Shown here: positions 11,102-63,883 of the stretch, piece by piece
How the letters are laid out: each line of letters begins with the position of its first letter
Position numbering within the stretch: the first letter of the stretch is position 1
Origin: an uncultured virus (IMG/VR IMGVR_UViG_3300043256_000464)
Lineage: Duplodnaviria; Heunggongvirae; Uroviricota; Caudoviricetes
IMG/VR virus record: IMGVR_UViG_3300043256_000464
Length of the DNA: 64,000 nt
Direction: 5' to 3' (one strand)
The notes under the pieces: generated by a model
Told to the model about the DNA's origin: nothing
Databases searched by the model: none
What the model saw: only the letters and a program-made list of their open reading frames with translations
Made by a program: the position numbers and the translations under genes

Positions 11102-12039
11102 TTCCCTGCTAAGCCAACCTCTTCAAAAATCTGATCAATTCTTGCACCCCAAGTGTGTTCCTCTACTGCCTCTCGCGCCTTGCGCCCGATTTTTTCAGCT
11201 TCGTTCGGATGATCAAGTAACCATGCAACTTTCTCTACTGCTTCTTCAAGCGTTTCGAAGCCAAGAAAATCCTGGCCATCCTGGAAGAGCTCCACCAGAT
11301 CCGGAACCTTATTCATCACAGCGGGTAAACCGAACGCCATCAACTCAAAACACCTGGCGGTTGTGTCCTGCAAACTGGACCAGTTTAAGCCAACCCGCGT
11401 ATCGTGATAAATTGCCCTGGCATCGTCATAAGCAAGACCCAATTTGTAGAATACCTCCCTGCCTTCCTGGATCAACCTGCCGATCAAATCATTGCGATGG
11501 CCGTACTGAAGCCCAATCAGCGCTGCGTCGAACCTGCGCTCGGAAAAGGGCGTTTCTGTTGGAGTGTGCCACTGCTGAGAATATGCATAGGGTAGCCAGA
11601 TATCGCCACGCTTCAAGTAAGGCGTTTGCATACCAAAAACATAGTCGGCCCGAGCTTTCTGACCATCGTAAAAATCACCCAGAACGTGTGGGTCAGACAA
11701 CACCAAGGCCAAGGGAGCAGAGACGGGTTTCCCCATTGCTACCAATCCAGCATTCACTTCGAGCCACAAATCAGGTTCCCAGGGTTTTTTTGTTTCGAGC
11801 ATCGGATAGGAAACCATCGGAGGATTTGTGATAGATGTGGGATGATCCGGTTTTCGTGAATAGCTTTCCGGAAGCACCATACCTCCACCCCATGGAATAT
11901 TTTTGCCTGTCCATGGACCCGCGCACCAAACATCTACGTCTTCACGATAGATCAAAGCCTCCCAGAAGTAGCGACACATTGCAACTGGATACCAGATGCC
12001 CGTGATGATTACTCGAGTTCGACGCCTCCTGGCACTCAT
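11098..12039 (-). CDS. CgeB-like GT-B glycosyltransferase
   Basis: RCFELMAFG...LFQDG...IGRKAREAVEEHTW. Confidence 0.8.
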   Translation of the reverse strand: MSARRRRTRVIITGIWYPVAMCRYFWEALIYREDVDVWCAGPWTGKNIPWGGGMVLPESYSRKPDHPTSITNPPMVSYPMLETKKPWEPDLWLEVNAGLVAMGKPVSAPLALVLSDPHVLGDFYDGQKARADYVFGMQTPYLKRGDIWLPYAYSQQWHTPTETPFSERRFDAALIGLQYGHRNDLIGRLIQEGREVFYKLGLAYDDARAIYHDTRVGLNWSSLQDTTARCFELMAFGLPAVMNKVPDLVELFQDGQDFLGFETLEEAVEKVAWLLDHPNEAEKIGRKAREAVEEHTWGARIDQIFEEVGLAGK

Positions 12040-12737: not shown

Positions 12738-12746
12738 CTTCTCTCC

Positions 12747-13097
12747 TTATGTAGATGTAAATGGTTTGTATGTAGCTCGGTATCCAGCTTGCCTCAATAG
12801 TTCCACCATGACTGGTGCAGCAACGTTATTCCAAGAATGAACAACTATGCGCCCTATTTTGGGTTTCTTCTTCACGATCCAACGAACAACCTCCATCCCA
12901 CAATCTTCACGATTAGAATCAACCCATGTCTCCCCGCCAAGATCATGATCGAGCATCACTAAGTCAAATTTCCCTTTCGCTCTCATAGCATCAATTGCGC
13001 TTGCAGCACTGACAACAATCTCCAGATCGTCGCCGTCGAAATTTTCAAAGGCTTTCTCAATACGCTCCGCACTGTCGTCTAGAAATAAGATTCTCAT
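12747..13097 (-). CDS. Standalone receiver-like domain (cyclic-phosphate-processing type)
   Basis: ILFLDD, LDHDLG, GMEVVRW, VHSWN. Confidence 0.7.
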   Translation of the reverse strand: MRILFLDDSAERIEKAFENFDGDDLEIVVSAASAIDAMRAKGKFDLVMLDHDLGGETWVDSNREDCGMEVVRWIVKKKPKIGRIVVHSWNNVAAPVMVELLRQAGYRATYKPFTST

Positions 13098-18058: not shown

Positions 18059-19021
18059 TTATGACTCCTTGGGCTCGTTCCAGTCAGACGGCTCTTCGTT
18101 AGAAATGCTCGCCCTGGTAAAAGCCGGTCGTCTTGTTAGTGCAAAATGAACGAGATGACCAGCTCGATAGATTTTCTCGCCCAAACCCTTTGAGCACATC
18201 TTGCATTGATCGATCATAGTTTTTCTAGTAAATTTCCCGTTCTCAAACCCTTCATGTTCGTGTGCCAGATCAAGAAATGCAATCGAGATGCGTGTTCTGA
18301 ATTCATGCGGAAGCTCGTCATCGATGTCACGTTTGACAGCTTCATAAGAAGCATTACCGATGGGTGTATCGCGAAAACTTCCACGGGCTTTGAACATGCC
18401 TCCATCTATGAAAACTTGCTCTGTATCACCCGCTATTCCAAATCCTTCTAGATCCAAATAATGGGCAATCCCCATATATGGGAGTCCGCCATTCCAAGCT
18501 TTGCTCGAAAACGGTGCAGGAACTTTATCCCTGTCCTTAACTCGTTTGATAAAGTCCTTGAAGAGTTCAACCGACATTCGTTCATCGTACAGATCTCTAT
18601 CTAGCCCGCTTGCGCTCGAAAACCAGCGCCTTACTCCGGTCTGTTCATCCTCAGAAACCCGAGAAATGTACATCTGCGCAACTGCTACAACTGGCACCAC
18701 TCTCCGCAATGGACCGGATACAGTGAGGCTACTTTCCGATTTCACTATTCCAGGTGTCCCTGCATTTCCAGAATTCAACTTGCCTCTCCCGTCTGGTTCG
18801 AATTCTCCGCAAACATCATCCGGCTGCACATTCGCTACATCTACTATTCGACACTTTCCTGCCTCGAAGAAAAAACAATCTCCGCATCTGTAGCCGCTGA
18901 TCCCGTCGCCTCTTTGGAAATTGGCCTCGGAGGGTTGGAGTTTGCGTTGTCGCCCTCCGATAGTTGTTTGCCCGGTACTTCCGCTGCCGCCCGTATTGCC
19001 ATGAGCTGCACGCTCTTTCAT
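18059..19021 (-). CDS. Prohead protease-like protein
   Basis: ASGLDRDLYDERMS, H, SIAF, HFALTRRPA resemble HK97-type prohead proteases; position fits. Confidence 0.55.
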   Translation of the reverse strand: MKERAAHGNTGGSGSTGQTTIGGRQRKLQPSEANFQRGDGISGYRCGDCFFFEAGKCRIVDVANVQPDDVCGEFEPDGRGKLNSGNAGTPGIVKSESSLTVSGPLRRVVPVVAVAQMYISRVSEDEQTGVRRWFSSASGLDRDLYDERMSVELFKDFIKRVKDRDKVPAPFSSKAWNGGLPYMGIAHYLDLEGFGIAGDTEQVFIDGGMFKARGSFRDTPIGNASYEAVKRDIDDELPHEFRTRISIAFLDLAHEHEGFENGKFTRKTMIDQCKMCSKGLGEKIYRAGHLVHFALTRRPAFTRASISNEEPSDWNEPKES

Positions 19022-21406: not shown

Positions 21407-22030
21407 GAGTCAGCATGCTCTTGATGGATTTCATTGGCCAGGTGGCCGACATTCTTCTGATGGGTCTCATAGTCTCAGTGGTCGGCATAGGCAAGCTGGG
21501 TTTCGTCAAGTACGTAGCCGACATCCATCGCCTGGGCTTCATTCATTTACTGGTCGGCATACACAGACTGGGTTTCATCCTTTTAGTGGCCGACATCTAC
21601 AGAGTGGGATACATTAGTCTCTTGGTCGGCATCTTCCGATTGGGTTTCATCACTTGTTTGGCCGACATGCCTATCCTGGGGTTTTCATTAGTGTTCTAGT
21701 CGGCATTACCTCGTTGGGTTCCATCCGTTCTATGGCCGACATTCAGTGGGTGGGCTTCATTTAAGGTGTGGTCGGCATATACCAGATGGGTTTTATCCTC
21801 CCCTTGGCCGACATCCTATGAATGGATTTCATTTGCCTCATGGTCGGCATAGTTGAGATGGGTTTCATAACTCTTGTGGCCGACATTCAAAGTCTGGATT
21901 CCATGATTTTCGTGGTCGGCATCTTGTACATGGGTTTCATTGTATCAATGGCCGACATTCGTTAAGTGGGCTTCATACTTCCCGTGGCCAGCATGGGAGT
22001 GGTGGGATTCATAATTAAGCTGGCCGACTA
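21407..22030 (-). repeat. TIGR-like dual-repeat array A, 17 units of 36 nt
   Basis: Plus-strand period TGGCCGACAT or TGGTCGGCAT-N8-TGGGTTTCAT-N8; on the minus strand CCA-9 nt-TGAAACCCA-9 nt-TG; 18 edge and 17 loop repeats counted; one unit is 38 nt. Confidence 0.9.
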
Positions 22031-22855
22031 AGCTACTTGCTCCAACTCGCGATCTTCATGCGATTTGGTAATAGGTAGCCCTTCAATCTCGCGCCATTCT
22101 AGCCATAAATCACGCAGCAGGGTTTTGGCCACTTTTCTCTTGGCCTTACGATGCTGGTGACTATCAGTTTCAAGTTCTTTCCATCTATACGAGGTAGGTA
22201 CGTTCTCGCCTTTCACGGCAGGGATTGGCTCTGGATACAGCTCGCGCATCCGTTCTCTATCTGCATAATATCCAGATGGTCCTGCGACATAGGCTGACTT
22301 CTGAGCCTTAATAAGGCTATCGGCAATGTTCCAGCAAAGAGCGCGGCCTTCGCGCGAGAAGTGATTCTTTTCTCCGCTAGAACTTCTTTCCATGCGTCCA
22401 TGGAGAGTGCCATTCGTTGACAGGTTGCCATCGATATCCATGACGGCCCCCATCAAATATCTCCATAGCTTCGAAACAGTATCAAAGCGACCAATGTCAT
22501 CGATCATTGCCAAAAGCTGAGCGGCTGTTGAATCTCCAATTCCATGAATTCCTACAAGCCATTCATAAATAGCCCCGAACTCTGAATTAGCCGCATCAAT
22601 CAAATCTTTCAGAGCTCTCTTTTCGAGCATGCGGATACCAACAGGACCTTGTTTGCCCTCGACAAGATCATCTAGAAAATGTAATTCCGCTGGCCCGTGG
22701 AGATTTGACTTCCCCTTCTCGATGGCATTCAAGCGTAGTTCATGCCTCAGGCGCATTTTCCTGAATTCTATGAAGAGGAGGTAGTGTTGCCAAGTGAGCT
22801 GGCGCTTTCGGGGCTTCGGATCGGGTCTAGCGTCTTTTTTGTTTTCGTCTGACAC
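22028..22855 (-). CDS. Nop/IS110-C-terminal-domain protein without nuclease (TasA-like), 275 aa
   Basis: IHGIGDSTAAQLLAMIDDIGRFDTVSKLWRY...HRKAKRKVAKTLLRDLW; no RuvC/DEDD; GTG start after AAAGGA; flanked by arrays. Confidence 0.8.
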   Translation of the reverse strand: MSDENKKDARPDPKPRKRQLTWQHYLLFIEFRKMRLRHELRLNAIEKGKSNLHGPAELHFLDDLVEGKQGPVGIRMLEKRALKDLIDAANSEFGAIYEWLVGIHGIGDSTAAQLLAMIDDIGRFDTVSKLWRYLMGAVMDIDGNLSTNGTLHGRMERSSSGEKNHFSREGRALCWNIADSLIKAQKSAYVAGPSGYYADRERMRELYPEPIPAVKGENVPTSYRWKELETDSHQHRKAKRKVAKTLLRDLWLEWREIEGLPITKSHEDRELEQVA

Positions 22856-22867
22856 TGCGTTTCCTTT

Positions 22868-23069
22868 CTGTCGCGACATCGTTTCGGTGGGTTTCATCAT
22901 CATCATGATCGCGACATCCAATCAATGGGTTTCATTTGTTTTTTAGTCGCGACATACCTTAACTGGGCTTCATTGTGTTCCTGGTCGCGACATTGGATAA
23001 TTGGGTTTCATTTCGAATATGGTCACGACATTCTTCAGATGGGTTTCATTGCTTACTTGGTCGCGACTC
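22868..23069 (-). repeat. TIGR-like array B, 5 units of 38 nt with palindromic edge repeat
   Basis: TGGTCGCGACAT-N8-TGGGTTTCAT-N8 repeated. Confidence 0.9.
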
Positions 23070-23071
23070 CA

Positions 23072-23761
23072 TCATTTTAATTTGAGGCCCGCTTTCTCAA
23101 TAAAATCGTCGCGGCCATTTAACCAAAGATCCATGGCTTTATCCATATTCTCTATGGCTCTGGGTGTGATCTTGGCTAGGCCGCTCTCGAGTGCGTTGAC
23201 AATGTGAAAAGCGTGCCATGCGATAGTCATACCAGAGTGGCTTTCGATAGCTTTTTGCTGTTTCTTTGTTACCTTCTTACCAGCAACACTATTAAGGCCG
23301 TTTTTGTTAGGGACAAGTTTTCCATTTCGCCCAAGCCCAAAACTAGCAAAGACATCCTCGACATCTGGCAATGGCATGATGATGATCTGCGAAATTTCTT
23401 CATCGGTCTTTCCAACCTCTCGCAATCTCGCCATGTTGCGCTTTTGATCATACGGATCGTATGGTCTTCCATTCCTTGAATTGTCGCCAATGGAAACAGC
23501 CAGACGCTCGGCATCATCCTCAAAATGCCGCCTCATAACAATCACTGTTCCGGAATGCTCTCGCAGATGTGCGAAATACCTATGCCAGCCGCCAATCAAG
23601 CGATTGTTCTGGCAGACCATCATGGGCGGAAGTTCTTGACCCATCCTTAAAGTATCTCGCATCCCTCGAACATGGGGATTAGAAACATCATTTCGGGGTT
23701 GCAACCAATCATCCAAGATGATGTCTAACAGGGGCATTTCAACTTGCTTATCTTGAGACAT
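23072..23761 (-). CDS. ParB/Srx-like N-terminal domain protein with HTH
   Basis: LQPR...LPPMMV...LIGGWHRYFA, NSRNG, then a helical HTH-like segment. Confidence 0.75.
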   Translation of the reverse strand: MSQDKQVEMPLLDIILDDWLQPRNDVSNPHVRGMRDTLRMGQELPPMMVCQNNRLIGGWHRYFAHLREHSGTVIVMRRHFEDDAERLAVSIGDNSRNGRPYDPYDQKRNMARLREVGKTDEEISQIIIMPLPDVEDVFASFGLGRNGKLVPNKNGLNSVAGKKVTKKQQKAIESHSGMTIAWHAFHIVNALESGLAKITPRAIENMDKAMDLWLNGRDDFIEKAGLKLK

Positions 23762-23781
23762 TTTTTTTGTTTCCTCTCATT

Positions 23782-23863
23782 AGACCCGCATTCAGCCAAT
23801 GGATTTCATACGAATGGTGGCGGGCATCTTGTGTGTGGTTTGCACTATCATTCTGGCCCAACA
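23782..23863 (-). repeat. TIGR-like array C1, 2 diverged units
   Basis: AGACCCGCAT-N8-TGGATTTCAT-N8-TGGCGGGCAT-N8-TGGTTTGCAC-N8-TGGCCC. Confidence 0.7.
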
Positions 23864-23900
23864 AAAGGGAATGATACTATACATTCTAATGTTCCACAAG

Positions 23901-24018
23901 CAGTCGGCATGTATTTATTGGATTTCATTCTTAGCATGGCCGACATCGAGGGTCTGGATTTCATCATTCGAATGGTCGGCATGGATTTTTTGGATTCCAT
24001 CATGCACTTGGCCGACAT
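23901..24018 (-). repeat. TIGR-like array C2, 3 units of 36 nt
   Basis: Alternating GTCGGC/GCCGAC edges with TGGATTTCAT loops. Confidence 0.85.
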
Positions 24019-24023
24019 CGACA

Positions 24024-31321: not shown

Positions 31322-32314
31322 CTATGGCCCGATGCCAAAATTCTCAATCATCATTGCCGTTTCGTTTTTTGGAGTACGCGTTGTTTTTATGTGCCACTGA
31401 TGAAGACCCATAAAGCCTTTTGAGCATATATCAACATAGCCCTTAATCCGTCGATAGTCCATGAGCCAATGATCAATCGTAGCATAACCCTTAAACACAG
31501 GCATGTCGCCCCAGATCGGGTCTGTGGCCGGTGCCGCGCCAACGAACCACCATGGAAAATGATCTAGCTCCAGCGCCATTGTATTAGTTATGAGCCCTCC
31601 GGCACTGATAAAAAAACCTCTGTCTCGCTCAATCTTTTCTATATTGTTGTGCCAGTCTACAGCGTCGATCTGCTCCATGGTCTTTGCGCTCAGGAAAAAT
31701 ATCTTTACGACGATCCACCTTCTGCCGCTCGACTCACCGTTGCCCATCTGGTACGAAAAATTATCTGCCCGCTCTCCGCTCGATGCCTCAAATATGAATC
31801 TCGCGGCCTTCGGCAACAGCATAATCTCTGGCTGCATGATCGCCCATATATCACCCTCGGCCATTGGCATGAGAGATTTCAAACCTTGAGTTGGACAAAC
31901 AGAGATTTCCGTTCGTGTCAGCCGCTTTGTTTTGAGTCTGAGATAAGGCCGAAACTTTTCAAACACCGATTCCAAATCTTGACTGCTGCCATTGTCACAT
32001 ACTAGAACCTCAAACTCGCGCCAGTCTTGCCGCGCCAAACACTCAAGAGAACGCGCTAGTTGATTTCGACGAAAATCGTTAATCGACATTAGAAGAGAGA
32101 GCTTGACTGGCAAGCTCTCATCTTTCAAGTCCAGGTCGTCTATCTTCAGAACTGGCTCTCCCTCATTCCAAATATCTGCCGCTATAGGCGGCGCGCGTTT
32201 CGCTTTGTTAGGAACCGTAGCGGGCGCATCAATCTCTTGGCTGGCCGCGATCTGTTGAGCCTGTTGAATGCGACGAACTCTTGCAGATTGCGGCGTCGAG
32301 TTTTCTTCGCTCAT
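31322..32314 (-). CDS. Glycosyltransferase family 2
   Basis: VLVCDNGSS, QPEIML, HQWH; similar to 1478-2218. Confidence 0.75.
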   Translation of the reverse strand: MSEENSTPQSARVRRIQQAQQIAASQEIDAPATVPNKAKRAPPIAADIWNEGEPVLKIDDLDLKDESLPVKLSLLMSINDFRRNQLARSLECLARQDWREFEVLVCDNGSSQDLESVFEKFRPYLRLKTKRLTRTEISVCPTQGLKSLMPMAEGDIWAIMQPEIMLLPKAARFIFEASSGERADNFSYQMGNGESSGRRWIVVKIFFLSAKTMEQIDAVDWHNNIEKIERDRGFFISAGGLITNTMALELDHFPWWFVGAAPATDPIWGDMPVFKGYATIDHWLMDYRRIKGYVDICSKGFMGLHQWHIKTTRTPKNETAMMIENFGIGP

Positions 32315-40100: not shown

Positions 40101-40254
40101 GGAGACTTACAAGAGAATCGGGTCGGAATGGGATGTAAATAAAGCAAGCGTTGCCCGCGCGCTCAATTGCCAGATGCCCGCTTTTGGCAAGCCAATCGGT
40201 TGGACTAATGAAGTAGTCGGGGAACTGAACTTTTTTCTCCACACTAAAACTCAC
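34174..40254 (-). CDS. 2026-aa polyvalent head-associated protein (2H phosphoesterase, two HExxH peptidase-like, ART-like, GNAT-like)
   Basis: FHMTL/PHVTV; THEMGH and YHELGH; IFHGT..VYAAS; GKGFGAQMM; five His/Gly spacer motifs. Confidence 0.7.
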   Translation of the reverse strand: MSFSVEKKVQFPDYFISPTDWLAKSGHLAIERAGNACFIYIPFRPDSLVSLQTKILEELDMTLKPVKPDKFHMTLLYIENCPTESIAALVANLMPPIQMLIELTSLAVLEGGDSLALVWLANPGPALLRLQSDLYYQAVAEGLPVSEFSPPSVFKPHVTVAYDLDSVPAQLPTIEPFHISADLFIVGRNEFEKVFTVHLPRGMGDRVFVESGIVLEERAKHSRKKCMDCSKPPEVDVHWANGMARAWFCFKHFCIWAEGEDAKDEINRVWAILDGEAPKKMGEGDSEQAKKIGEKQSLKTIIKRLREALKERSSEEEVFEGVILSTEQLSTLLRGESIVYGPLRKVISLEDGPFALRHGDHEDQHGRPGKRGGSQTGFHHVGGSKEETSRRRQAARRRRTEAGQRKVIWGMDDKERLKQTRGLFNDFTEKTGIAPSFMLITDDIEDAGDSFIDSISGIVPEVETSPSTRLAALMKVNPILEEQVAGFMSNRETGEADDFNLLWINNESLEKWEKVNEDAGDWVITHEMGHWAHRRIIGAGNEGIEVPVIYRHIVEDLGYTGESVMSEYVADLTASYVLGTDAMGIKNTSRYIPMLQRNRDDRAKVIAALSGSEIEKSYIERAKEVVVAFAFPTMAGDDEFREIVRIDPDEIEEYEKAGTPVTVIEKGGMVVERGILASGESGQDQDIDIAGLDPGGSSRRQETGFKPTKKLFGKENHEPFSDINKTPNEQDAQKLADDLSQWPRGGSDLLNEALQWPDPEKLEQTRGDEEYRSEIRMQMQGELIQETLDLLYAQPDSYQDLSIEQSSLITFGNEGIEDLMRNVALKRLPVITEDEVDLRIDADIERASAGLVGYDHRFALNDLGEIVAFARMLPRSKVPRVDELINSIEEQKSGILRHYAPTHPGTGTGQEVHGGNGAGKGSEKKPSESIFHGTGAKAAQSIMESGLLLNFADEDNRVSDVVYAASDRRDALHFASRSSEENYALITIDSSLAGSEPEVSEFGELMFSQSIPAEAIVKIDVYRRGYQRKDDKLIKTIERVEDESSYLFIVADVNEAGEYSILGPGKDDDQSKDEDQDIERYNWLELQHLVAKESGKGFGAQMMAEAFQIAETGNQGLYLGFVDEAKDFFEAFDPIIDSDNRIAAWKPDQVQSMAERARKELLVERENLDEVDIGGQGIKKEGIDLEPKDGAFALLIDWDSVPREWLGKITRENPEFISPEDQKVRDARARGERRLRGQEQEFLSDVIGKKSIREEIGGLFARLSSIFRHGEGHKSQEGRLGQQGGSQPGYTHDGDKADSDKIGLTSETWQKQPFDEALSKSYADAIEKKFGLTPPENIVNAAWIAPDGRTLAEGSVHEETSQHALSEVSGVDTDDITISETQVIQSGLIRHTFFAYGQETFVISGTDEFTSEQKQTLRSMMDTRVDQRASVEIPSGRDNELVGLRIFVVEDIPPSLDPISRPLKQVNGVDTMRLLGLSRNEWRTSNIDKGLVVSTAPRMTELGELITESEPEESEEIIEKHLGPGPHPGTGTDQSVHAGNGANGDWNPEDDNTIEFGRKLALDEEFDEEDKARGVEFRNSSIEVLKEFYEKTGIKPRGLTITNSYLDMADAVIEGQRYPALNRYELAAYLADRSAGSGVVGSYENETIWMTDRLEGEKGVGGSKWKELAYHELGHWVHNDVLSDIRDANDVPQITMDLNSEMIGSDRYISAASQHYGEDTIRLRREYVADLFSSMVTQVSGEAPRFHRWGLGTFNKQETEDLATLRRSVDRAIEESPEISRAFTYKPSDDRRVIVLLPVGAGEMLVVNAEEAYRDNWPEGIEIIDPAFPIGENPVSVGRILDGAIERHGEGHEGQEGRKGQRGGSQAGYSHTGAAETKPEASKSPGVQATADEFNQAFTNAMEDNKRAAFVTHYSEKELADMEALYLSEDGKSGLAVLDHGDGRIEATAAFNDGAPKGTVLKMIEQSVRENEVNYAEAFGPFLPAYYSGIGFKTTEQYSFDEDEAPANWNYELHGRPDYHIMEVGK

Positions 40255-40922: not shown

Positions 40923-41669
40923 TTAACGTACCAAGAACCAGATCATGTAAATTCCGCCTGAACCACCGGATGGCCCTGCATCGATTCCATTGAACTTGAC
41001 ACCGACCAATTTCCATCCATCATCCAGCATGTTGCTTATGAAAGCATCGGCCTGGAAGCCTGTTACGGTTCCCCTAATTGTGTCAGGGTTTCCGGTCAGT
41101 GTTCTGAGTACATGATGGGCCTCTGAATATCTGGCCTCATCGTCATTCCCACCCTTCTCCAAAACCCAACCTACGCGATGACCTCGGATATCAAATCCAC
41201 CGACAAACACTTCCAACGGCTCATATCCCTGAGCCAAAAACCTGCTGATTTCCGCATCAGCCGAATCAACATCCAAGAGGCCGATCATTGGATCTGGCTC
41301 AGGACCGTCGCCGATGGTGAACATGAAGTGCTTGATGCGCGTATTATACGCAATGGCTTCGACATCTTTGCTGGACAGGACATCTTCACTGCCGGGGTGA
41401 GTTTCAACATTTGGTGAAGATGGCTCTTCTGTTGAAATTGGCTTAACATCTACTTCCGGCCCTCCGGTCTGAGGTAAATTGCTAGCGTAGCCCGCGTATC
41501 CAAGCCCCTGCTCTTGAGCACGCGCCACGATACTAGCAGCAATGTCTTCCTTCGCGCGTGCTGTGGGAGCACCGATTCGTTCAGCAATTAAACGAAGATC
41601 TGGCATACCGAATGCCATTAGTGCTGTCTGTTCCTCCGCTACTCCAACTGGTACAGTTTGTTCGTTCAC
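40923..41669 (-). CDS. Hypothetical protein
   Basis: Coupled to the portal gene. Confidence 0.5.
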   Translation of the reverse strand: MNEQTVPVGVAEEQTALMAFGMPDLRLIAERIGAPTARAKEDIAASIVARAQEQGLGYAGYASNLPQTGGPEVDVKPISTEEPSSPNVETHPGSEDVLSSKDVEAIAYNTRIKHFMFTIGDGPEPDPMIGLLDVDSADAEISRFLAQGYEPLEVFVGGFDIRGHRVGWVLEKGGNDDEARYSEAHHVLRTLTGNPDTIRGTVTGFQADAFISNMLDDGWKLVGVKFNGIDAGPSGGSGGIYMIWFLVR

Positions 41670-44290
41670 GTTATCCTCCGTGATACGATTCTGAATACCC
41701 CGCCGCTTCTTCTCTTTTTCTTCTTGCCCCCAAGATAGGGCGCATACTCACCTCGCGCCACAGTTGCCTTCAATTCATCCTCATCAAAGATTACTTTGCA
41801 GTGACAAACATTCGGATGTGCAGGAGGTGTTCGAGCTCTCCCGTCATCCTCTGGACCACCTTTTGAAAAGACTGTTAGATACAAAAAGTCCACTGACACA
41901 AAGCCCAGCTTTTCGTTCCCAGCACAGACAGGGCACGGATGCTCATTGCCCTTCCTGGTAACGCCTCGTGGTCCAAGGTGAGTCCATTTCTTTGTTTTCA
42001 ATCCTGTCTCGATGATCTGCCGCAGATGTCCTAGGTTGGTCGCTCGATTAACCTCAGTAAATACAATCGATTCGGATCGAGCTTCGCTCATCTCGCCCAT
42101 TCCGCTAAGGATATCTTGGATTGCTTCATCCATAAATCCTTCTTCGGTCAACACCCGTTCGGCTTTCGCTCCATCTCGAATAGCCTGCGCGATACGTGGC
42201 CTAGCCATCCCCTGGCGAACACCAGCGACTACAATGCGCTTGATGAAATATTTGGTTCCGTCATTAACCCTTGTCACGAGCTCAGCAGCGGAACGCTCCA
42301 AAAAGCGTATCGTTCTGGAATTGGTCAGATTGAAATTGATTCCAAGGGAAAGCTCCGGAGAACTAAGCAACGCTTCCGAGTAAAGAGAACGTATGATTGC
42401 AATCGCTTCTTCCTCTAGCCCAACCTCGTAAGCTGATTTGAATATAGACAGAATTGCGTCTTTGTCCCAGACGTTCGCTACCTTCCACCATTGGTCATCC
42501 AGCAAGTGGGAATTAAGCACATCCCTAATTTCCTCAGTGGTTTGCCTGATGATCATTGAGTCAAGTTCGCTGGGCATCCCGAAATCAAGTGCCTGCATCT
42601 CGGGGAGCCAAATCCTTTGAATGGCATCATTGTCCAAATTGTCAAAGGTTCGCTTGACAGACGGAAGCATTTCTCGAGTGGCTGCTTTGATCAAGCGTCG
42701 AATTCTAGGCGCTGACGGAATTGGACTGCCAGGACCCGACCTACGAAATTGTCTGGACCCTGACTGTGCTGCTAGCTCAGGTATGCTTGCAATAGCTGGC
42801 GCAACAATGACTTCCATCCTGCGAATAAGATCATTGTATGGCGGATCTCCGGGAACATCTGGAGGGGTTTTTACAAGAGTCTTAACTGACAATCCGCCTC
42901 GACCGCCCTGCGTCGCCGAGACCTTTCCCTTGTCCTCGTCTTTCACGCGACCCCTATCATCGTCGTCGGGTTTACCAAATGGCTTGCGCTTATCTTTCTT
43001 TTTTCCTGGGAGCTGGAAGGTTGGCTTACCAGGCATTCCCATGGGAACTTCCGGCTCTGGAATTTCGTTTGGATCGATTTCGGTTTCCATGAGACCAGTA
43101 GACACCAATTCAAGTCGCGCTTCTTCAGGCGAGAGAAGACCATCGCGCTTGAGCTGGCCAAGAGCCAAGCCGTAGGTTGATAAAGCTCGCCCCTGTTCTG
43201 TCTTGGCTTCCTCGTCTTTCTCTTCCCAAATGAACTGGAGGTGGTCCGGCAGAATGTGGTTGAAGTGATTCTCTGTTTTGCTTCGGACCATGGCTCGGCC
43301 CGTTCGACGACTCTGTCTTTCGCCTCGAATAACACCAGCCAGGGTTTTCTCACCACTCTGTTCAGCCATTCCGATATCAGATAGCCGTATGCCGTATCCA
43401 GCAGCACAAATGGCCGCGTACTTCAGAGTGGTTTGATCGTAGAGCATATCAATGGGAGGACGATTGAAAGGAATCCATTGAGCAGGCGTCTTGTGGTCAT
43501 AAAGCACTGGGACTTTAAAGCCGTCGATGCCCATCATGAGATCACGCCAGCTATCCAGCCATTCTTCGGCGTCGTCTTCCTTCATGTCAATCAAATCGAG
43601 AAGGCCTGCCTCTGGAGTATCGAGCAAGAGGTTGGCATAGTAACGATCTCCGCGGTACAGCATCTCGATCGCTAGATAAATCTTTTCGGGCGGAGCCATC
43701 CCCCAACCCTTGCGCTTAATCTGAGGCGAGGGCGTCATGTACATTCTGGCAATTGAATGACTTGGGAAAACAATCGGTCTGCCAGGTGCATTGGGAACAA
43801 CCTGTATCACTGGCCATTCTCTATCGCCCGTGGGAATTAATGTAGCACCATCAACGTGCTCGATCCACATGACCGGTCCCTCAGGGTCATCATTGAGTCT
43901 TCCCAGCTCGGCCATTCCCCCAAACGGAAGATCCAGCATGTCTTGCACGATCATTTCGATGTAATTGTCGAAATCACCTTCAGCTTCATTGAATACATCC
44001 ATGTAGTGGTCGATCTCATCCTTCTCAAGTTGAAGCATCGCCTCCTTGCTTTCACGAGGACGAATTGACCAATCCATTGATAGAAGATTTTGAGTTAGCG
44101 TGTCACGACAGATAATGGCTATAGGCTGATTGCGCACAAGCGCCCGCCATTGCTGTCCAGCAAGATATCCAGGATGGCCCCAATACGGAATGGTCCGATT
44201 GAGGTAAGGAACTAGTTTGATAGCGCGTTGAGAGGCTGGCTCTTCAGCCGCCCTTTCAACGGGTTGGATTATTTCTGTTTCTTTCGGCAT
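41666..44290 (-). CDS. Portal protein fused to MuF-like head morphogenesis domain
   Basis: Follows TerL; HVDGATL, GWGMAPPE; C-terminal RSESIVFTE, KKW, CPVC, PPAHPNVCHC. Confidence 0.8.
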   Translation of the reverse strand: MPKETEIIQPVERAAEEPASQRAIKLVPYLNRTIPYWGHPGYLAGQQWRALVRNQPIAIICRDTLTQNLLSMDWSIRPRESKEAMLQLEKDEIDHYMDVFNEAEGDFDNYIEMIVQDMLDLPFGGMAELGRLNDDPEGPVMWIEHVDGATLIPTGDREWPVIQVVPNAPGRPIVFPSHSIARMYMTPSPQIKRKGWGMAPPEKIYLAIEMLYRGDRYYANLLLDTPEAGLLDLIDMKEDDAEEWLDSWRDLMMGIDGFKVPVLYDHKTPAQWIPFNRPPIDMLYDQTTLKYAAICAAGYGIRLSDIGMAEQSGEKTLAGVIRGERQSRRTGRAMVRSKTENHFNHILPDHLQFIWEEKDEEAKTEQGRALSTYGLALGQLKRDGLLSPEEARLELVSTGLMETEIDPNEIPEPEVPMGMPGKPTFQLPGKKKDKRKPFGKPDDDDRGRVKDEDKGKVSATQGGRGGLSVKTLVKTPPDVPGDPPYNDLIRRMEVIVAPAIASIPELAAQSGSRQFRRSGPGSPIPSAPRIRRLIKAATREMLPSVKRTFDNLDNDAIQRIWLPEMQALDFGMPSELDSMIIRQTTEEIRDVLNSHLLDDQWWKVANVWDKDAILSIFKSAYEVGLEEEAIAIIRSLYSEALLSSPELSLGINFNLTNSRTIRFLERSAAELVTRVNDGTKYFIKRIVVAGVRQGMARPRIAQAIRDGAKAERVLTEEGFMDEAIQDILSGMGEMSEARSESIVFTEVNRATNLGHLRQIIETGLKTKKWTHLGPRGVTRKGNEHPCPVCAGNEKLGFVSVDFLYLTVFSKGGPEDDGRARTPPAHPNVCHCKVIFDEDELKATVARGEYAPYLGGKKKKRRSGGVFRIVSRRIT

Positions 44291-44357
44291 ATTTCCTACC
44301 CGTAACTGTACTCCATAATAGAGCAAAATCGCGAAGTATCAAAGCACCTTGCACCCA

Positions 44358-46058
44358 TCAAAGATGCTTAAACTTCTGTCTGTATCGATCTTCTTCTCCC
44401 GCTACCTCATTGAAAGCCCCAGAAGTAGCATCAACATCATCATCGTGTTTGCCATGAGGAAAGGCCCGGTGGACTGCCATCCATGGTTGATTCCATTTGC
44501 CCTCCAAAAGCCTGACATTCCCAGCGTTAACCTGGGATGAAAAGCCACGGGCTCTAACGTCTTTGCCGCCAGTGGATGGCCTACCCTCACAGTCATATCC
44601 CGCAAGTATGCGAGTGTATATATTGATCAAGCTCTTTCCAGACGCGCCGCCTTCTTGTTCTATTCGAATTGGAACCTTTTTGCCATCGAGCTTGGCTGTT
44701 TGCTTGATCATGTCTTCAACTGTTTGAGATTCGCCACGTACACGCACTACGTTCAACACCCAAGTCAAACCAGTTTCTTCGTCTCTTCCGACTAATGCCC
44801 CAACTGTCCAGTCTGGATCGGCTTTGCTACGTTCTTCTTCAGTCGCAGCTAGATCCCAAAACCTGATGCAATTTTTTAAACCAACTGGGATGCCGCTTGA
44901 TTCAAATGCCTCGATATCTCCCCCAAACACATCGACCGGATACATATCTTCGATCTCAATACGACCCACCTTGAAGAAATCGCCTTTGGGAGGTGTTGGA
45001 TGCTGTTGGTATTCGGCATCCCAAACCAAAGGACCAACTTCATCGCGCATTTCTTTATAATGCTTGTCGCTGAATCTAGATGGCGCTGCTGATCTATCGG
45101 GTTCGCGACCCAGCGCATCCGGTAAGCCTTCTGGCAAACCAATCAATTTGTTAGCAATATCACGTTCCTCTTGTGTTTCAGATAAAGCCGCGTAGGATAA
45201 AACCTTCCATTTTCCACGCCCGCCCCCACATTCTGGACAAAGGACAGGATCATTGTCATCGGCCATATAGAAGTCGCAATCTTTGCAAAGATTAAGATTG
45301 CCCTCTTCTCTCAGTACACGAGCAGCTAGATCGTCCTCGTGCCAGCGCGTCATCATGAAGACCATGCAGCCATTTTCCCAAAGACGCGTTTTTAGTGTGC
45401 CGCGCCACCATTGCCAAAGATTTTCTCGTACTGTATCTGACTGAGCCTCGGCCCAATCTTTAACTGGGTCGTCTATGATGATCAACCCGAACCCTTCACC
45501 TGTGACGCGTCCACCCATACCTGCAGCCCAGACATGTCCTTTGTAACCAAACAAATGCCAATCTTTTTGTTTCCACCTTTTCACATCTGGGAGAATACCT
45601 TGGGAGGAAAATAATCTTTCGTATGCAGGATGCTGGACGACTTCTCTAGCATTAATGCTGTTCCTCTTGGCCAAGTCATCACCATATGAAGCAAGCAAGA
45701 CAGGAAGATCGTGATTGTGTGCTAGCCAGAAGCCGGGCAGCCTAGTGGAAACTATTTCCGACTTTCCCGTTTGCGGCGGTGCAAATAACATCAGGTGGCT
45801 TATGTGACCATCTGGATGGTCTGCATAAACTACGCGGTCTACGTAATCGCAAACATGGAGGTGGAAAACATCTGTTTTATAATCCGAGAACGTGTAAGGA
45901 ATAAAGTAGCGCATCTTTTCGCGCGCTAACGTAACCATCCCAAGTTCTTCTTCGTCGAGATAAACATCTGGATCGAGTTTATCGGCAGTCAAATGCATCA
46001 TGCTGGTAACGGGATCAATGGGACTAATCATTGAACCGATATTCTCTTTGGTAATCAT
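44358..46058 (-). CDS. terL: Terminase large subunit
   Basis: APPQTGKS, LIIIDDPVKD, MTRWHEDDL, YQQHP, WDLA, HDDDVDA. Confidence 0.92.
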   Translation of the reverse strand: MITKENIGSMISPIDPVTSMMHLTADKLDPDVYLDEEELGMVTLAREKMRYFIPYTFSDYKTDVFHLHVCDYVDRVVYADHPDGHISHLMLFAPPQTGKSEIVSTRLPGFWLAHNHDLPVLLASYGDDLAKRNSINAREVVQHPAYERLFSSQGILPDVKRWKQKDWHLFGYKGHVWAAGMGGRVTGEGFGLIIIDDPVKDWAEAQSDTVRENLWQWWRGTLKTRLWENGCMVFMMTRWHEDDLAARVLREEGNLNLCKDCDFYMADDNDPVLCPECGGGRGKWKVLSYAALSETQEERDIANKLIGLPEGLPDALGREPDRSAAPSRFSDKHYKEMRDEVGPLVWDAEYQQHPTPPKGDFFKVGRIEIEDMYPVDVFGGDIEAFESSGIPVGLKNCIRFWDLAATEEERSKADPDWTVGALVGRDEETGLTWVLNVVRVRGESQTVEDMIKQTAKLDGKKVPIRIEQEGGASGKSLINIYTRILAGYDCEGRPSTGGKDVRARGFSSQVNAGNVRLLEGKWNQPWMAVHRAFPHGKHDDDVDATSGAFNEVAGEEDRYRQKFKHL

Positions 46059-56481: not shown

Positions 56482-57282
56482 TTATGTCATACAAAAGCCA
56501 CTCTCGCAATTCTCCAAACTATCGAAATTCATTTGATGTGCAACAGCCTTGTTTAATGGCATAAGTGCGGGATGTAGAAAAACATCATTGTTGCCCATGG
56601 CTTCGCGCCGCTTACGTTGAATTTCCTTTTCGATATTACAGGCCTCTTCGAACAGATCTGGGCGTTCCGATCGAAGTCGTATCCATGCTGTGGGGGTGTG
56701 GAACGGGCAAAAGTAGCAGCTTGATTGAGGCGGCGTTGGCAAGCCCGCGCGACGAATAATTCTGTGGCAGTCGTTGCGACTTAATCCAAGATCAATCAGG
56801 GGGTATGACTTCAGTTTCCTATAGCCTCTTACATGTTGCCAGTCCTCCACTCTCGCACGATGAATCTCGTCAACCGTAATGCCCAGCCCAACATATACAT
56901 CCTTCCCTTTGCCATCATGCTCCGCGACCCATCGATCAACTGTCTTAATTTTGTAACCAACCGTGCATGCTCTGTTGCCTGGAGCCCCATTGTGACCCAT
57001 ACGTGCTGGTATCGGTACGCTTCGTTTGGTTCTATAGATAAACTCGCGCAAAGTCTCAAACGTCCCATCTCGCCTAATCCAATTAATCTCGTGGAATTGG
57101 ATTCCCTCTTCTTTGGCAAATGGCATAGCGACGCCACGGACATACTCAAGCGTTCCTGGATTCTCGCTGTCGTCACCAACATTAGCAAACAGGTGAATTG
57201 GATAATCGATCTTTTATTGGGCCGAGAGCACTAGGGCGGCTATGCTTTGAACACCGCCTCCCGATGAAAAAACTCTTATCAT
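56482..57282 (-). pseudogene. PAPS-reductase/PP-loop family gene with in-frame TAA at codon 23
   Basis: MIRVFSSGGGVQS...SAQ*KIDYP...FANVGDDSE continues in frame into the 214-aa ORF (RACT..YK, YPL, SSCYFCPF, CESGFC). Confidence 0.7.
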
Positions 57283-57505
57283 GGTATCCACGGTCTTTGA
57301 GAAAACAATCTATCAAGAATCGACTTGCCAAAATCTCGACTAACCAATAAAGCCAGTCCAGCGAATACTGCTAGCACAAACATGATTTTGACCGAATCGC
57401 TTACAACAACATCGATCAAATAGAAAACCAGGATTAGGACAATGAACAGCGCGGTAGTAGCTAAAAACCCCACTATCAATTCTAAAAGAGTCCTCATTGC
57501 TTTTT

Positions 57506-58096
57506 TCATTTCACTCTCCTAATTAAGAACAGACTGGTTTCTGGCCAATGCTCAGGACTGGCCACAACAAATTCTCCGCTGTCGATATGCGGTTTGATGT
57601 CGCTCCACTGGGGGTTATTCTCAGTCGCGTGATCTGGATGATAGTCATGTGCGAGAATGTAATCTCCCACGCGAACTAGATGCGCGAAATGGTTGATCTC
57701 TTTTGGTTTGTTGCCTCCATCACAGAACACAAGCGCGGGACCTACTGTGGTTACGATCCAACCACTGGCCTTTTTGGTGAATGGCGCACCAAAGCAATCT
57801 CCGATAACTATCTGGGCGATCTCATTAGGTAGTTTATCTATTTGAGCCTTTAGTTGTGGATTAATAATGTTCTGTATGTCCACCCCCAAATATCGGAAGG
57901 TCGGATCATAGGCAATTCTTGAAATCATCATGGAGGCCATGCCGCCTTGCAGAAATCCTATTTCGATTACTAGCCTTATGCTGTTTTCTGCAATCAAGGT
58001 AACAAAATTCGCAACATCCATCCAGGTAGTCTGCGTGACTATGCCAAGAGGATTAACAGTGAACGGTGTGTTTTTATCGAAGTTGGGTGAGGTCAC
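57506..58096 (-). CDS. Methyltransferase-like, paralog 3
   Basis: VIEIGFLQGG...FCDGGNK...AHDY. Confidence 0.6.
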   Translation of the reverse strand: MTSPNFDKNTPFTVNPLGIVTQTTWMDVANFVTLIAENSIRLVIEIGFLQGGMASMMISRIAYDPTFRYLGVDIQNIINPQLKAQIDKLPNEIAQIVIGDCFGAPFTKKASGWIVTTVGPALVFCDGGNKPKEINHFAHLVRVGDYILAHDYHPDHATENNPQWSDIKPHIDSGEFVVASPEHWPETSLFLIRRVK

Positions 58097-58998
58097 TCAC
58101 TCATAGCCTCTTCTGCCAATAACGCCTTGTACCATTCAGCGGCACCTCTAGTCAAGCCCCGCCTGATCTGTGGCCAGAAGTGAGCGTACAGCGCGTCGCG
58201 CACTTCAACCTCTAGGTCCTCTTCCACATCCCTCACAATCTCACGCATGACAATTGGTATATCCTGCGGAATGCCTTCAATCTCACCCTGCTCGCGCAAG
58301 TGCTGAACAGCTTTCATCCAACGTGCTTCTGTCGCCAATCCATTAATCAGATCGGCAATAAAATCATTCCTGCTTGGATTGCGCTTCTTCCAACTTTTAT
58401 CATGCCTCTCTTTGAAGTCCTCTGAAACCATTTTGGCCATCAACGCCTTTTTGTCTTGGCCGAAGAGTTCATAGTTTTTGAATACGATGCCCTCAATCTT
58501 CCCGCCACCTAGAATGCTCTCAGTTTCCAGCAGCGCCGTTATATCCTCAAGTTTAGGCATCTTGAAATATGTGTCGAGAAGTGGCACGCTCTCTAGATCA
58601 ATGTTGGCGGCAATATCGCGCAGAGCTGCCGGGGACACATAATCTTGATCGCCTCGGTCTACATCAAACAAGATGATATTCCCCCGCGGCACTCGATCGT
58701 AGACCATGGTGTTGTGTTTTGGCTTGGACAGATATTCGCCACGATAGCTCCAACCCTCTTGAAGCAATCCTTGATGCCACAAATCCTTTGCTGTATCAAC
58801 CGCTAATTTGAACATGCCAGGATCACCCAAATCGATTAGCACCCTGCGCGAACGACAAGTAAATTCGCCCGCTATAAAGCCGAAGCTGAACTGACTGCCA
58901 TCTATCTTCTCTGTCGCATAGATGGTTCCCTTCCAGAAGCCTTTAAGGGCTTTGTGACCTAGATTAAATGGCGAACTGTAAGCTCTAAGATGGTTCAT
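58093..58998 (-). CDS. RNA ligase (Rnl2-like)
   Basis: TEKIDGSQF, GEY, FDV, EGIVFK, KMV. Confidence 0.8.
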   Translation of the reverse strand: MNHLRAYSSPFNLGHKALKGFWKGTIYATEKIDGSQFSFGFIAGEFTCRSRRVLIDLGDPGMFKLAVDTAKDLWHQGLLQEGWSYRGEYLSKPKHNTMVYDRVPRGNIILFDVDRGDQDYVSPAALRDIAANIDLESVPLLDTYFKMPKLEDITALLETESILGGGKIEGIVFKNYELFGQDKKALMAKMVSEDFKERHDKSWKKRNPSRNDFIADLINGLATEARWMKAVQHLREQGEIEGIPQDIPIVMREIVRDVEEDLEVEVRDALYAHFWPQIRRGLTRGAAEWYKALLAEEAMSE

Positions 58999-61187: not shown

Positions 61188-61595
61188 TTAGTCCATAATC
61201 TTTTTCATGAACTCACTAACCAATTCAGGCAGTCCCTCTGCTGCTTTATACATCTCCCCCAGTAGCTTTTCGCCATTGGGCAAACTTTCAAGCTCTAGTC
61301 CATATTCAATGTGTATTAAGTTGATACTGTCAAAGGCCGAATCGGTGAATGGGTCATCTTCGGCCCTAATCTCTCCACCCTTGCGCATAATATTAGCTCT
61401 ACGCGCAAACTTTTCTAAGTTACGACTCATGGCACGCTGCCAATTTTCGACGCCCACGATATCGTTGCCGCCACGGAAGTTAGAATAAGGATCGTCGTCG
61501 CTCGCATAGTCAGCCCGCTTATCAAGAGTAATGGATAGGGCTTGGGCAAATAAGCCGAGCTGAATCACAATAGCATCCTTGTGAGAAATTTTCAT
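61188..61595 (-). CDS. Nucleotide-modification-associated domain-like protein
   Basis: KRADYA..DPYSNF...DS..D. Confidence 0.5.
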   Translation of the reverse strand: MKISHKDAIVIQLGLFAQALSITLDKRADYASDDDPYSNFRGGNDIVGVENWQRAMSRNLEKFARRANIMRKGGEIRAEDDPFTDSAFDSINLIHIEYGLELESLPNGEKLLGEMYKAAEGLPELVSEFMKKIMD

Positions 61596-61779
61596 CTAGG
61601 ATCACTTTCCAAATAATTCATCATGATCTATTTATCCTTTGTGAGTTTTTCCGAATCGGAGACAACGTTTATCACCATGTCGGATACACGACGCCTCCTC
61701 GGACAATCGCCTCCGATTCAGATGCCGCGGATTGACAGGGAGGGGACAATCCAAAGAAGGATAGACATCGGGGTTTTGG

Positions 61780-62715
61780 TCAGCTCCCGGCTTCAATCTC
61801 GCGGCATCCTTCGGCCAGATCTTCCAGCCACTCCAAATCACCCTCGGGTAATCTGAGATGATCGTGGTTGCCAATAATATAATACACGCAGTTCATGATA
61901 ATGTCGGTTGTTCTCTTCCTAGACGTAAAATCTGCTTGTCCCCGTTTCATTCCAGATTCAATTTTGCATTCCTTATATCTATCATATTCAATTTTAAGAG
62001 GACCGCCATGTTTAATGATTCCATCTGGAACGACTTGAACCCAGAGGCTTTTCACATATGAATTGTGATTAGCCTGAACACCTTTCTTGCGTTTTTTCCA
62101 TTTACCACCGCATACACCAGCATAGGAACGCGAATTTCCAAGCGTAGGTCTTCTGCTGGTCTTGGGATGTAACCGGAATGCTTTAACAATATGAAGGATT
62201 CTAAACAGACTCGCGGGGCCTAAACCGGGGATATCATCGCAAAGATGCACAATGCCAGGATGTGTTTTTCGTGCCAAGCCCACAACTCTCCGTCGCAATC
62301 TATCGCGTGCTTTTGATGGCCCATCCACGAGAAGTTGGACATATTCCTCCGGCATACCATTCCTTACAAGATGCGATGCCTGCCCCTTACGACGATTCGA
62401 ATCTTTGCTAAGAGCCGTCTCTATTCGTACCATTACCCAAAGCTCATCTATGTCATTGGGCTTATAAAGAGAACCATAATTGGGAGCATCGGAGAGCTTG
62501 CCTTCAAATCGATGGGTGCCGATAAAATCACCCGATTTTTCTGGAGGATTGCAATCTGGACAAGACCAAAGAATGTTATCTTCCTCAGATCCACCACTAG
62601 CTTGCCGGGGGATAATATGAGCTTTCTGACCATATGCCAATTCGCATTTGATTCCACAAGATTGGCAAATGCCTTTGTCGCGTTTGTATATTTCTTCTCG
62701 TGTATTTTTATTCAT
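61780..62715 (-). CDS. HNH nuclease fused to Nop/IS110-like domain (TasH-like)
   Basis: RDKGICQSCG...HIIP..GG...N...CPDCN, then IPGLGP...SYAGV...KRKKG...YDRYKE...RKRTT. Confidence 0.75.
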   Translation of the reverse strand: MNKNTREEIYKRDKGICQSCGIKCELAYGQKAHIIPRQASGGSEEDNILWSCPDCNPPEKSGDFIGTHRFEGKLSDAPNYGSLYKPNDIDELWVMVRIETALSKDSNRRKGQASHLVRNGMPEEYVQLLVDGPSKARDRLRRRVVGLARKTHPGIVHLCDDIPGLGPASLFRILHIVKAFRLHPKTSRRPTLGNSRSYAGVCGGKWKKRKKGVQANHNSYVKSLWVQVVPDGIIKHGGPLKIEYDRYKECKIESGMKRGQADFTSRKRTTDIIMNCVYYIIGNHDHLRLPEGDLEWLEDLAEGCREIEAGS

Positions 62716-62727
62716 TTACGATGACAA

Positions 62728-62783
62728 GGGCGCGGCAGAGGAAGGCACGGGTAATCATTGGATCTATGGGTATTGCCGCGCCC
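62728..62783 (-). ncRNA. Single stem-loop tigRNA-like unit
   Basis: 10-bp stem GGGCGCGGCA/TGCCGCGCCC enclosing CCA-TAGATCCAA-TGATTACCCG-TGCCTTCCTC-TG. Confidence 0.65.
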
Positions 62784-62801
62784 GTTACATTCTAAGCTAA
62801 A

Positions 62802-63773
62802 TCAAGGAGATTTGCCTAGTTCAGACTTCACCATAATCTCAACCAACTCCTCAAAACTGGTCTTGGGCATCCATCCCAACTTCTTACGCGCTTTGCTTGC
62901 ATCACCACAAAGTTCCCGAACTTCGGCGGGGCGTTTTAGGGCTTCACTATCCCATTCGACTTGAGAACGACTTTTACCAACATGCGCCAAAGCCAAATCC
63001 AAGAATTCTCCAACCGAGTGCGTTTCCCCAGTCGCAATCACATAATCATCTGGTTCGTCCTGCTGAAGCATCAACCACATCGCTTCAACATAATCAGGCG
63101 CGTAGCCCCAATCTCGTTTTGCATCAAGCGACCCAAGCTCAAGCGTTTTGCCTGTTCGTTTGATCCGAACCACGCCTTGGGCAATTTTCCGAGTCACAAA
63201 TTCTATTCCCCTTCTTTCGGATTCGTGATTGTACATAATTCCGCCAACCACAAACATCCCAAACGACTCTCGGTAAATATTGACAAGCCGATGCGATGCT
63301 AACTTGGATAAACCATATGGTGAACATGGAGTCATGCGAGTTTCTTCATTTTGAGGTAGAGGTTGGTTTCCGTACATCTCTGATGAGGAGGCTTGATAAA
63401 TGCGTGGAAGCGCACGACCTTTAATTTGACGACAAACATCAAGTAGTTTCAGAAAGCCGAGAAAATTGACCTCGTTGGTGTGTATAGCTTGATTCCATGA
63501 AGCACCAACGAATGACTGGGCGGCCAAATTATAGATTTCTGTGGGATGAGCGGTTTCTATAACATGTCTCAATGAACCACTGTCTGTCATCTCCCCCTCA
63601 ACTAGCTTGAAAGACTGGTTGTTTAGAATGCTAGCTAGATTTCCAAGGTGCTTAAGGGATCGATGACGGATCATGCCTATGACTTGGTAGTTTTTAACTA
63701 GGAGAAATTTTGCGAGGTAAGAACCATCCTGGCCTGCTACGCCCGTAACAAGTGCCACTTTGTTCGTCGGCAT
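62802..63773 (-). CDS. gmd: GDP-mannose 4,6-dehydratase
   Basis: ALVTGVAGQDGSYLA, YNLAAQSFV, YQASSSEMYG, NHESERRG, RDWGYA. Confidence 0.92.
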   Translation of the reverse strand: MPTNKVALVTGVAGQDGSYLAKFLLVKNYQVIGMIRHRSLKHLGNLASILNNQSFKLVEGEMTDSGSLRHVIETAHPTEIYNLAAQSFVGASWNQAIHTNEVNFLGFLKLLDVCRQIKGRALPRIYQASSSEMYGNQPLPQNEETRMTPCSPYGLSKLASHRLVNIYRESFGMFVVGGIMYNHESERRGIEFVTRKIAQGVVRIKRTGKTLELGSLDAKRDWGYAPDYVEAMWLMLQQDEPDDYVIATGETHSVGEFLDLALAHVGKSRSQVEWDSEALKRPAEVRELCGDASKARKKLGWMPKTSFEELVEIMVKSELGKSP

Positions 63774-63883
63774 GTATGTTCTCCAAATAAATGGGTGACT
63801 AAATACAATTGAGTTTAGCATTAATAAGGAAGTCCCACAACTACGGCGAAGACAGCCATGCCCTATATGGTACACTTTAACCT

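Follow-up and report, generated by a model that had tools for sequence, protein, structure and literature searches.

We describe a cassette from a tailed phage in which a gene for a TasH-like protein, with an N-terminal HNH domain joined through a coiled coil to a Nop domain, is flanked on either side by a hairpin laid out like a two-spacer TIGR guide. We put the probability at roughly 55% that this stem-loop TIGR-TasH cassette serves as an interference weapon against related phages. A more specific version of this reading, in which an array-free weapon with two guides is fixed on the catalytic-motif codons of two essential head-assembly enzymes of the phage's own family, with rivals escaping only at wobble positions and the carrier immune by synonymous change, is a tentative proposal to which we give slightly less than an even chance.

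The window (the whole stretch of 64,000 nucleotides that was analysed) is part of a tailed phage that has terminase, portal and major head protein genes. One marine sediment metagenome run contains the stretch and is a possible source; proteins of the window were also found on contigs of up to 118,095 bases, and the window represents about half of the genome. Several relatives coexist in the sediment sample: related contigs in the same run carry 309 letters in place of the 1,111 nt at 57105-58217, and skip 74 nt at 61188-61263. Genes for glycosyltransferases, sugar epimerases and GDP-mannose dehydratase are abundant in the window (3380-14651, 31322-32314 and 62802-63875), and the phage also encodes a DNA polymerase III beta clamp and an RNA ligase (24444-25583 and 58093-58998). 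Downstream of the portal gene lies a gene for a 2,026-residue protein (34174-40254), whose N-terminal region resembles 2'-5' RNA ligase/LigT proteins below the Pfam cutoff. The features discussed below are collected in Table 1.

Table 1. Positions in the window of the cassette, its candidate sites and the landmark genes
Feature	Position	Strand	Remarks
TasH-like gene	61780..62715	minus	311 aa; Zn-type HNH aa ~5-60, coiled coil aa 88-151, Nop domain to ~aa 303
Upstream stem-loop guide (predicted)	62728..62783	minus	10-bp stem; box C 62767-62769; spacer A 62758-62766; spacer B from 62747 downwards
Downstream stem-loop guide (predicted)	61650..61722	minus	17-bp stem; box C CCG 61700-61702; spacer A 61691-61699; spacer B arm 61668-61680
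Promoter-like site (weak)	62789..62818	minus	9/12 consensus matches; start would fall at 5' foot of upstream hairpin
Own prohead-protease site (AFLDL), candidate	18266..18281	minus	12/16 bases match; all four differences at third codon positions, synonymous
Own terminase site homologous to the G001 target	44423..44440	minus	10/18 mismatches
Upstream-guide self-match	11460..11475	plus	15/16 bases match; inside glycosyltransferase gene 11098-12039 (minus); mismatch at spacer A position 2
Dual-repeat TIGR locus	21410..24020	minus	three sub-arrays; TasA gene 22028-22921; ParB-like gene 23072-23761; outside the cassette
Terminase	44358-46058		
Portal	41666-44326		
Major head protein	15665-16867		

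The TasH-like protein

The first-pass annotation, made from the letters of the sequence, had described an HNH domain fused to a Nop-like domain, and had named structure prediction as a check on the C-terminal part. Both the description and the check were borne out. The Pfam HNH family (PF01844) matched residues 17-56 with 28.7 bits, against a cutoff of 21.4. A structure model built from a 36-row alignment (mean pLDDT 72.7, with the HNH part below 50 and thus of low confidence) contained two long helices at residues 88-151 and a helical C-terminal domain. When this model was searched with Foldseek, SpTasH (9W04) came top (E 8.7e-4), followed by TaTasR, and ranks 1-10 were all Tas chains. In a VIA-align comparison against 48,161 chains, TaTasR (9MTY) scored Z 15.5 (rmsd 2.8 over 193 aligned residues), SpTasH 13.4 and an IS110 recombinase (ISCro4) 10.8, with the next unrelated row at 7.5. 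The predicted Nop/Tas fold covers residues ~87-303, and fold comparison indicates that this is almost certainly a Tas-type Nop/coiled-coil protein with an N-terminal HNH domain. With the NCBIfam TIGR-Tas model NF052498 it scored 19.9 bits (E 5.8e-4), below the cutoff of 100; it is by its predicted fold and the layout of its guides, and not by this profile, that the protein is a divergent member of TIGR-Tas.

Only three relatives that combine HNH and Nop domains were found (P0002, P0004 and P0147). These are 24-29% identical to the query and are known as proteins alone. In a 31-row tree, they and the query formed a clade of their own (support 100/98), on long branches that drew a warning from the program; the window's TasA and the stem-loop TasA group lay outside it. 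The best Nop-only match (P0027) belongs to a group whose viral loci have canonical stem-loop arrays. Another set of loci (L149-L161) forms a distinct Nop-domain clade, on viral contigs that look marine from their appearance in the tree; in most of them the unit scan gave no canonical stem-loop or dual-repeat units. No locus homologous to the cassette was present in the viral contigs searched, and a genome scan gave three HNH-only matches. The cassette locus may already be catalogued in published supplements; a 20-residue stretch of the protein was absent from the Faure supplements among 9,182 Table S1 rows.

The HNH catalytic residues had been described as partly atypical. This holds for alanine 32, which stands where 69 of 94 related HNH domains have aspartate, and for the Pro-Pro that follows N56; the departure is otherwise limited, as all four cysteines are kept in the query, together with H33 (found in 89/94), N47 (93/94) and N56 (84/94). 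The aspartate at the position-32 site presumably binds metal, as in Cas9-type HNH domains. Two of the HNH-Nop relatives, P0002 and P0147, have arginine in place of the HNH histidine. The active SpTasH (Table S1 sequence, compared by eye) reads D30-R31...N45...H54, that is, with arginine at the usual histidine and the aspartate kept, where the query has its four cysteines and A32-H33...N47...N56. Since SpTasH is active yet off the HNH consensus, the atypical residues do not prove a loss of activity.

Two flanking hairpins as candidate guides

The GC hairpin of 10 bp upstream of the gene, ending 12 nt before the ATG, was re-derived with the same arms (62774-62783 and 62728-62737) and spacing. 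Its interior reads CCA-9 nt-TG-5 nt-CCG-10 nt-TG, so that its two boxes differ and box C is not repeated identically; spacer B most likely begins one base earlier than was first given. The cassette had been regarded as having one guide unit. Folding of the intergenic region revealed a second hairpin with the same box layout, 58 nt past the stop codon (arms 61706-61722 and 61650-61666). None of 200 shuffles was as stable, in a folding window chosen around this hairpin, and the upstream hairpin gave modest folding z-scores of -2.2 to -2.6. Both interiors conform to T-R-Y-C-C-R, 9 nt, YG, 2 nt, T-R-Y-C-C-R. This strict pattern occurs twice in 64 kb, once per hairpin, against 0.05 expected, a null that is generous, as the pattern was derived from the two hairpins themselves. 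A looser box pattern combined with a stem of at least 10 bp returned the same two hairpins only (0.05 expected), and another relaxed pattern with such a stem had an expectation of 0.17 per 64 kb; both of these patterns were fitted after the hairpins had been seen. A third, degenerate unit seen by eye near 61720-61770 was not borne out by the pattern scan. Rfam gave no match.

The two units are single ones, not in tandem, standing ~1 kb apart with one on each side of the gene, and such a placement of guide units on either side of the gene has been described for known stem-loop loci. Their spacers measure 9 and 10 nt in the upstream unit, and 9 and 13 nt in the downstream unit, the latter one base above the published range. 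In both, 4-5 unpaired bases precede box C, whereas 236 of 256 related units have a stem that abuts the boxes. Promoter-like sites that score as well as the one listed in Table 1 were found five times, against 2.6 expected. Fold comparison and box layout agree on a TasH-like protein with a stem-loop guide, as first proposed. On the strength of this layout and of known Tas biology, each hairpin would be transcribed and bound by a Tas dimer as a two-spacer guide, very probably in the case of the upstream hairpin and probably in that of the downstream one.

About 40 kb away lies a separate dual-repeat TIGR locus. Its array units are 36 nt long, with 38-nt units at 22.87-23.07 kb, and nearly all of its spacers end in A, which leaves a variable part of 8 nt. 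The grammar of the cassette's hairpins had been called the same as that of these arrays; the two do resemble one another, but the arrays read CCA-N8-ATG with a 4-nt loop, and the hairpins TRYCCR-N9-YG with a 5-nt loop. The array's TasA passes NF052498 (128 bits against a cutoff of 100) and shows no significant similarity to the TasH-like protein (BLAST E 0.5). According to the available text of 10.64898/2026.09.09.750476, Tas and guide shape covary in published systems. The suggestion that the TasH-like protein might also load guides from the array is unlikely, given that the array has its own Tas, that the two Tas proteins are dissimilar and that the guide layouts differ. Among the 23 regular units of the array, the irregular ones being left out, none matched the window, or the related phage G001 described below, with fewer than two mismatches, and 2/23 gave amino-acid matches where about two were expected. 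The arrays thus show no targeting of the kind proposed for the cassette.

Candidate targets in head-assembly genes and competing readings

From the strand pairing set out in the available text of PMC12045711, and from its C-5 rule and 8-nt 3' overhangs, we derived the order of a target: first spacer A, then spacer B in reverse complement. The same source describes TaTasR as tolerating gaps of 1-2 bp, and SpTasH is reported to pair 8 nt per spacer (PMC12045711; 10.64898/2026.08.11.744272) and to lose cleavage altogether with adjacent double mismatches (10.64898/2026.08.11.744272). Guide matches were found in the published geometry and none in the reversed control. The gaps are inconsistent between the guides, being 0 at the upstream guide's protease match and 2 at the downstream guide's terminase match, and each leaves one ninth spacer base unpaired.

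For the downstream guide, an exact 8+8 pattern with gaps of 0-2 was found at 68 loci in IMG/VR, and exact 16-nt matches of the upstream guide (gap 0 only) at 11, none of the latter in a relative of the phage. When these 79 loci were compared with the window's proteins, homologues of the terminase and portal were found in a single one, L191, on the contig G001; four others gave weak AAA or Clp-protease matches only. G001 is syntenic with the window, with a capsid protein that is ~60% identical, a portal that is 49% and a terminase that is 46% identical. The site, at 3001-3018 of L191, matches the guide at 17 of 18 bases in a 9+9 reading and falls in frame on the HDDMVDAS nuclease motif in the C-terminal part of the terminase, where DDxxDAxS or a close form was present in all four terminases aligned. 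H427 and D429 of the G20c terminase are described as active-site residues (PMC5389553), and by analogy these would be the H and the second D of HDDMVDAS. Shuffled downstream guides matched G001 exactly in 52 of 400,000 trials. Assuming 100 to 1,000 such contigs in IMG/VR, the chance of a match in any of them is 0.01-0.12, and about one tenth of that on a conserved segment, an estimate that depends on this number of family members; several hypotheses had been tried before the terminase and protease matches emerged.

G001 itself (55,841 bases) has a GC content of 62%, against 48% for the window, and is therefore probably not the natural victim. It was the only record with the window's capsid protein among 145 viral records searched of 150, in a search that left out loci L072-L080. 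In GenBank phages the capsid protein was found in 0 of 50,697 and no such protease was found, while their terminases were ~33-35% identical. G001 represents roughly half of a genome, and an alignment search turned up no counterpart of the cassette gene on it. The contig carries two major capsid gene copies (G001:C1:2018-3193 and 4670-5839), both ~60% identical to the window's single copy, through either duplication or an assembly artefact.

The upstream guide's candidate target emerged from translation. Translated in all frames, the predicted target had one exact match among the 77 proteins of the window, the pentapeptide AFLDL in the product of gene 18059-19021. This gene is grouped in the ESM Atlas with prohead proteases of the S77/S78 type and has a counterpart in G001 that is 48% identical; it has no Pfam, PHROG or NCBIfam match, and its single-sequence model reached a pLDDT of 37. 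We call it protease-like, an identity that rests on the ESM Atlas. In the phage's own protein, AFLDL stands directly after S-I, with a serine that we take to be catalytic from the SIGF-type motif of S77/S78-type proteases. Among 1,500 shuffled upstream guides, any amino-acid match was found for 8.9%, and a match on a segment conserved with G001 for 0.7% with gaps of 0-2 and 0.07% with gap 0. The G001 protease reads AFVDW at this site, with six mismatches to the guide, and in no relative did we find a DNA sequence that matches the upstream guide perfectly.

From these sequence matches, a mechanism can be proposed. Spacers A and B would pair with opposite DNA strands, over ~8 bp each, at two sites in related phages that code for the most constrained residues of their enzymes, the nuclease motif of the terminase and the serine motif of the prohead protease, and the phage's own alleles would be protected by 10 and 4 mismatches, respectively; this step seems to us somewhat likelier than the reading as a whole. 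The bound Tas may then cut slowly, or only block transcription of the rival's gene, with an HNH domain that may be weakened, a point on which we hold the odds to be about even.

The competing reading that deserves most attention, although we judge it unlikely, is that the real targets are 17-nt sites, in which the two spacers share one base pair, in genes outside the data seen; the window shows 64 of the phage's 118 kb. In both hairpin guides the bases A9 and B9 are complementary, as is characteristic of a 17-nt target whose middle base pair is shared by the two spacers, and among 245 distinct related stem-loop TasA guides (L082-L147) the proportion with complementary bases at these positions is 49%, compared with ~26% for other pairs of positions. 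Moreover, the downstream guide read in this way spells a ribosome-binding site plus ATG, and could serve to silence a gene at its start, in a host or in another element; in the 18-nt reading, this gene-start pattern is scarce in related guides (5 vs 3 of 245, no enrichment). A 17-nt target would exclude both the terminase and the protease assignment, so that both matches would have to be chance. Against it, 17-nt readings gave no exact amino-acid match among the minus-strand proteins of the window or G001, and none of the 17 gap-1 matches in IMG/VR lies in a recognised relative. A self-match of the upstream guide leads to a different proposal, namely that the protein, its HNH domain weakened or dead, uses its guide RNA to repress the glycosyltransferase gene of the phage itself. 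The site matches at 15 of 16 bases in the published geometry, as did 6 of 3,000 strict and 26 of 1,200 flexible shuffles, and the position of its one mismatch, position 2, is reported to be tolerated by SpTasH (10.64898/2026.08.11.744272). A32 and the Pro-Pro after N56 are in keeping with such a role, and the stem-loop Tas proteins examined to date act by repression and not by cutting, according to the available text of 10.64898/2026.09.09.750476. A perfect match would, however, place a stop codon in the glycosyltransferase frame, and the guide cannot then simply stem from a working allele of that gene; the downstream guide has no convincing self-target in the window, and active SpTasH departs from the HNH consensus as well. 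We give this proposal little credence as an account of the whole cassette. Unless the self-site has favoured a weak HNH domain through selection, one of the two matches, glycosyltransferase or protease, is due to chance.

Free-standing HNH genes often act as homing elements, and the cassette had been suggested to be one, next to gmd. On this view its guides would cut a cassette-free junction there, into which the cassette would then be copied. A contig of depth 7 in the source run, which differs from the window at many positions, links 61520 to 63020 across a stretch of undetermined letters, apparently without the cassette, which for this reason is probably accessory. Furthermore, gmd has EFLDL ~200 nt from the cassette, sharing four of five residues with the translation of the upstream guide. 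The guides, however, had no site with two or fewer mismatches in the window at 57-64 kb, where the best had at least three, nor in any of 80 viral gmd loci, whose gmd genes are distant (identity of 53% or less), and AFLDL was found in none of 68 motif strings taken with a loose pattern. Neighbour-gene scans did not have a cassette-free relative among their results, and the better-supported targets lie 17 and 44 kb from the cassette. Homing at gmd accordingly finds no guide match in its favour, and we hold it to be very unlikely. More improbable still is that the hairpins are no guides at all, but a terminator or another structure, with the protein an orphan Tas that perhaps borrows array guides. 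The modest folding of the upstream hairpin leaves room for this idea. Yet no terminator was called at either hairpin and the upstream one has no U-tail, which speaks against the possibility, raised at the outset, of a mere gmd terminator; the four-box layout is found in both hairpins and nowhere else in the window, and the array has its own Tas. We thus retain interference against related phages as the preferred reading.

Relation to known systems and significance

The closest characterised counterpart is SpTasH of Salicola phage CGphi29 (PMC12045711, as far as its available text goes; PDB 9W04), which likewise has an N-terminal HNH domain, a coiled coil and a Nop domain in ~310 residues, and whose 8-bp heteroduplexes would fit the candidate targets proposed here. 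The two proteins are 14-16% identical, and SpTasH uses a dual-repeat array, whereas here two isolated stem-loops flank the gene. In this, the cassette resembles the stem-loop TIGR systems PlTasA, PateTasR and CsTasR (10.64898/2026.09.09.750476, in its available parts), with which it shares box C/D spacer pairs, a variable closing stem and a position on either side of the gene. It differs from them in its box C (CCR), in the 4-5 unpaired bases that come before it, in spacer B arms of 10 and 13 nt, and in that its protein and the three HNH-Nop relatives form the long-branched clade noted above. Stem-loop TasH proteins are already known, and are rare, being placed at two isolated tree positions in the same source; what is new here is the candidate targets.

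As a strategy, the proposed interference is reminiscent of the gp210 intron HNH endonuclease of PhiPA3, which, in the available text of PMC11620839, is also an HNH enzyme that acts on an essential gene of a co-infecting relative and blocks virion assembly. gp210 is guided by protein and encoded in an intron at its target, whereas targeting here would be RNA-guided and directed at two sites remote from the cassette. VIPR systems (10.64898/2026.04.26.720920, partial text) are also phage-encoded, RNA-guided DNA-targeting systems with natural targets in rival elements, and differ in their protein family and in their non-contiguous guide code. IS110 bridge recombinases have the Nop-fold RNA-binding domain in common with the TasH-like protein, which lacks their DEDD RuvC domain and scores lower against the IS110 fold than against Tas proteins.

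Genuine TIGR targets are described as hard to identify and as mostly unresolved in the available text of PMC12045711 and 10.64898/2026.09.09.750476. In a literature search on TIGR together with terminase, prohead protease, homing or natural targets, with subscription papers largely outside its scope, we found no paper assigning such targets. The locus adds to the rare stem-loop TasH proteins one of 311 residues from a distinct clade, with hairpin guides that may need little processing, and reveals a phage with two apparently independent TIGR systems. It offers two specific, testable candidate targets, each with an immune self allele, by which the natural role of TIGR becomes directly testable. 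If the assignments are true, they would constitute the first defined natural target pair for a TIGR nuclease, one that can be found by translating the guide and not by a DNA search, and the cassette would be an RNA-guided counterpart of homing-endonuclease interference.
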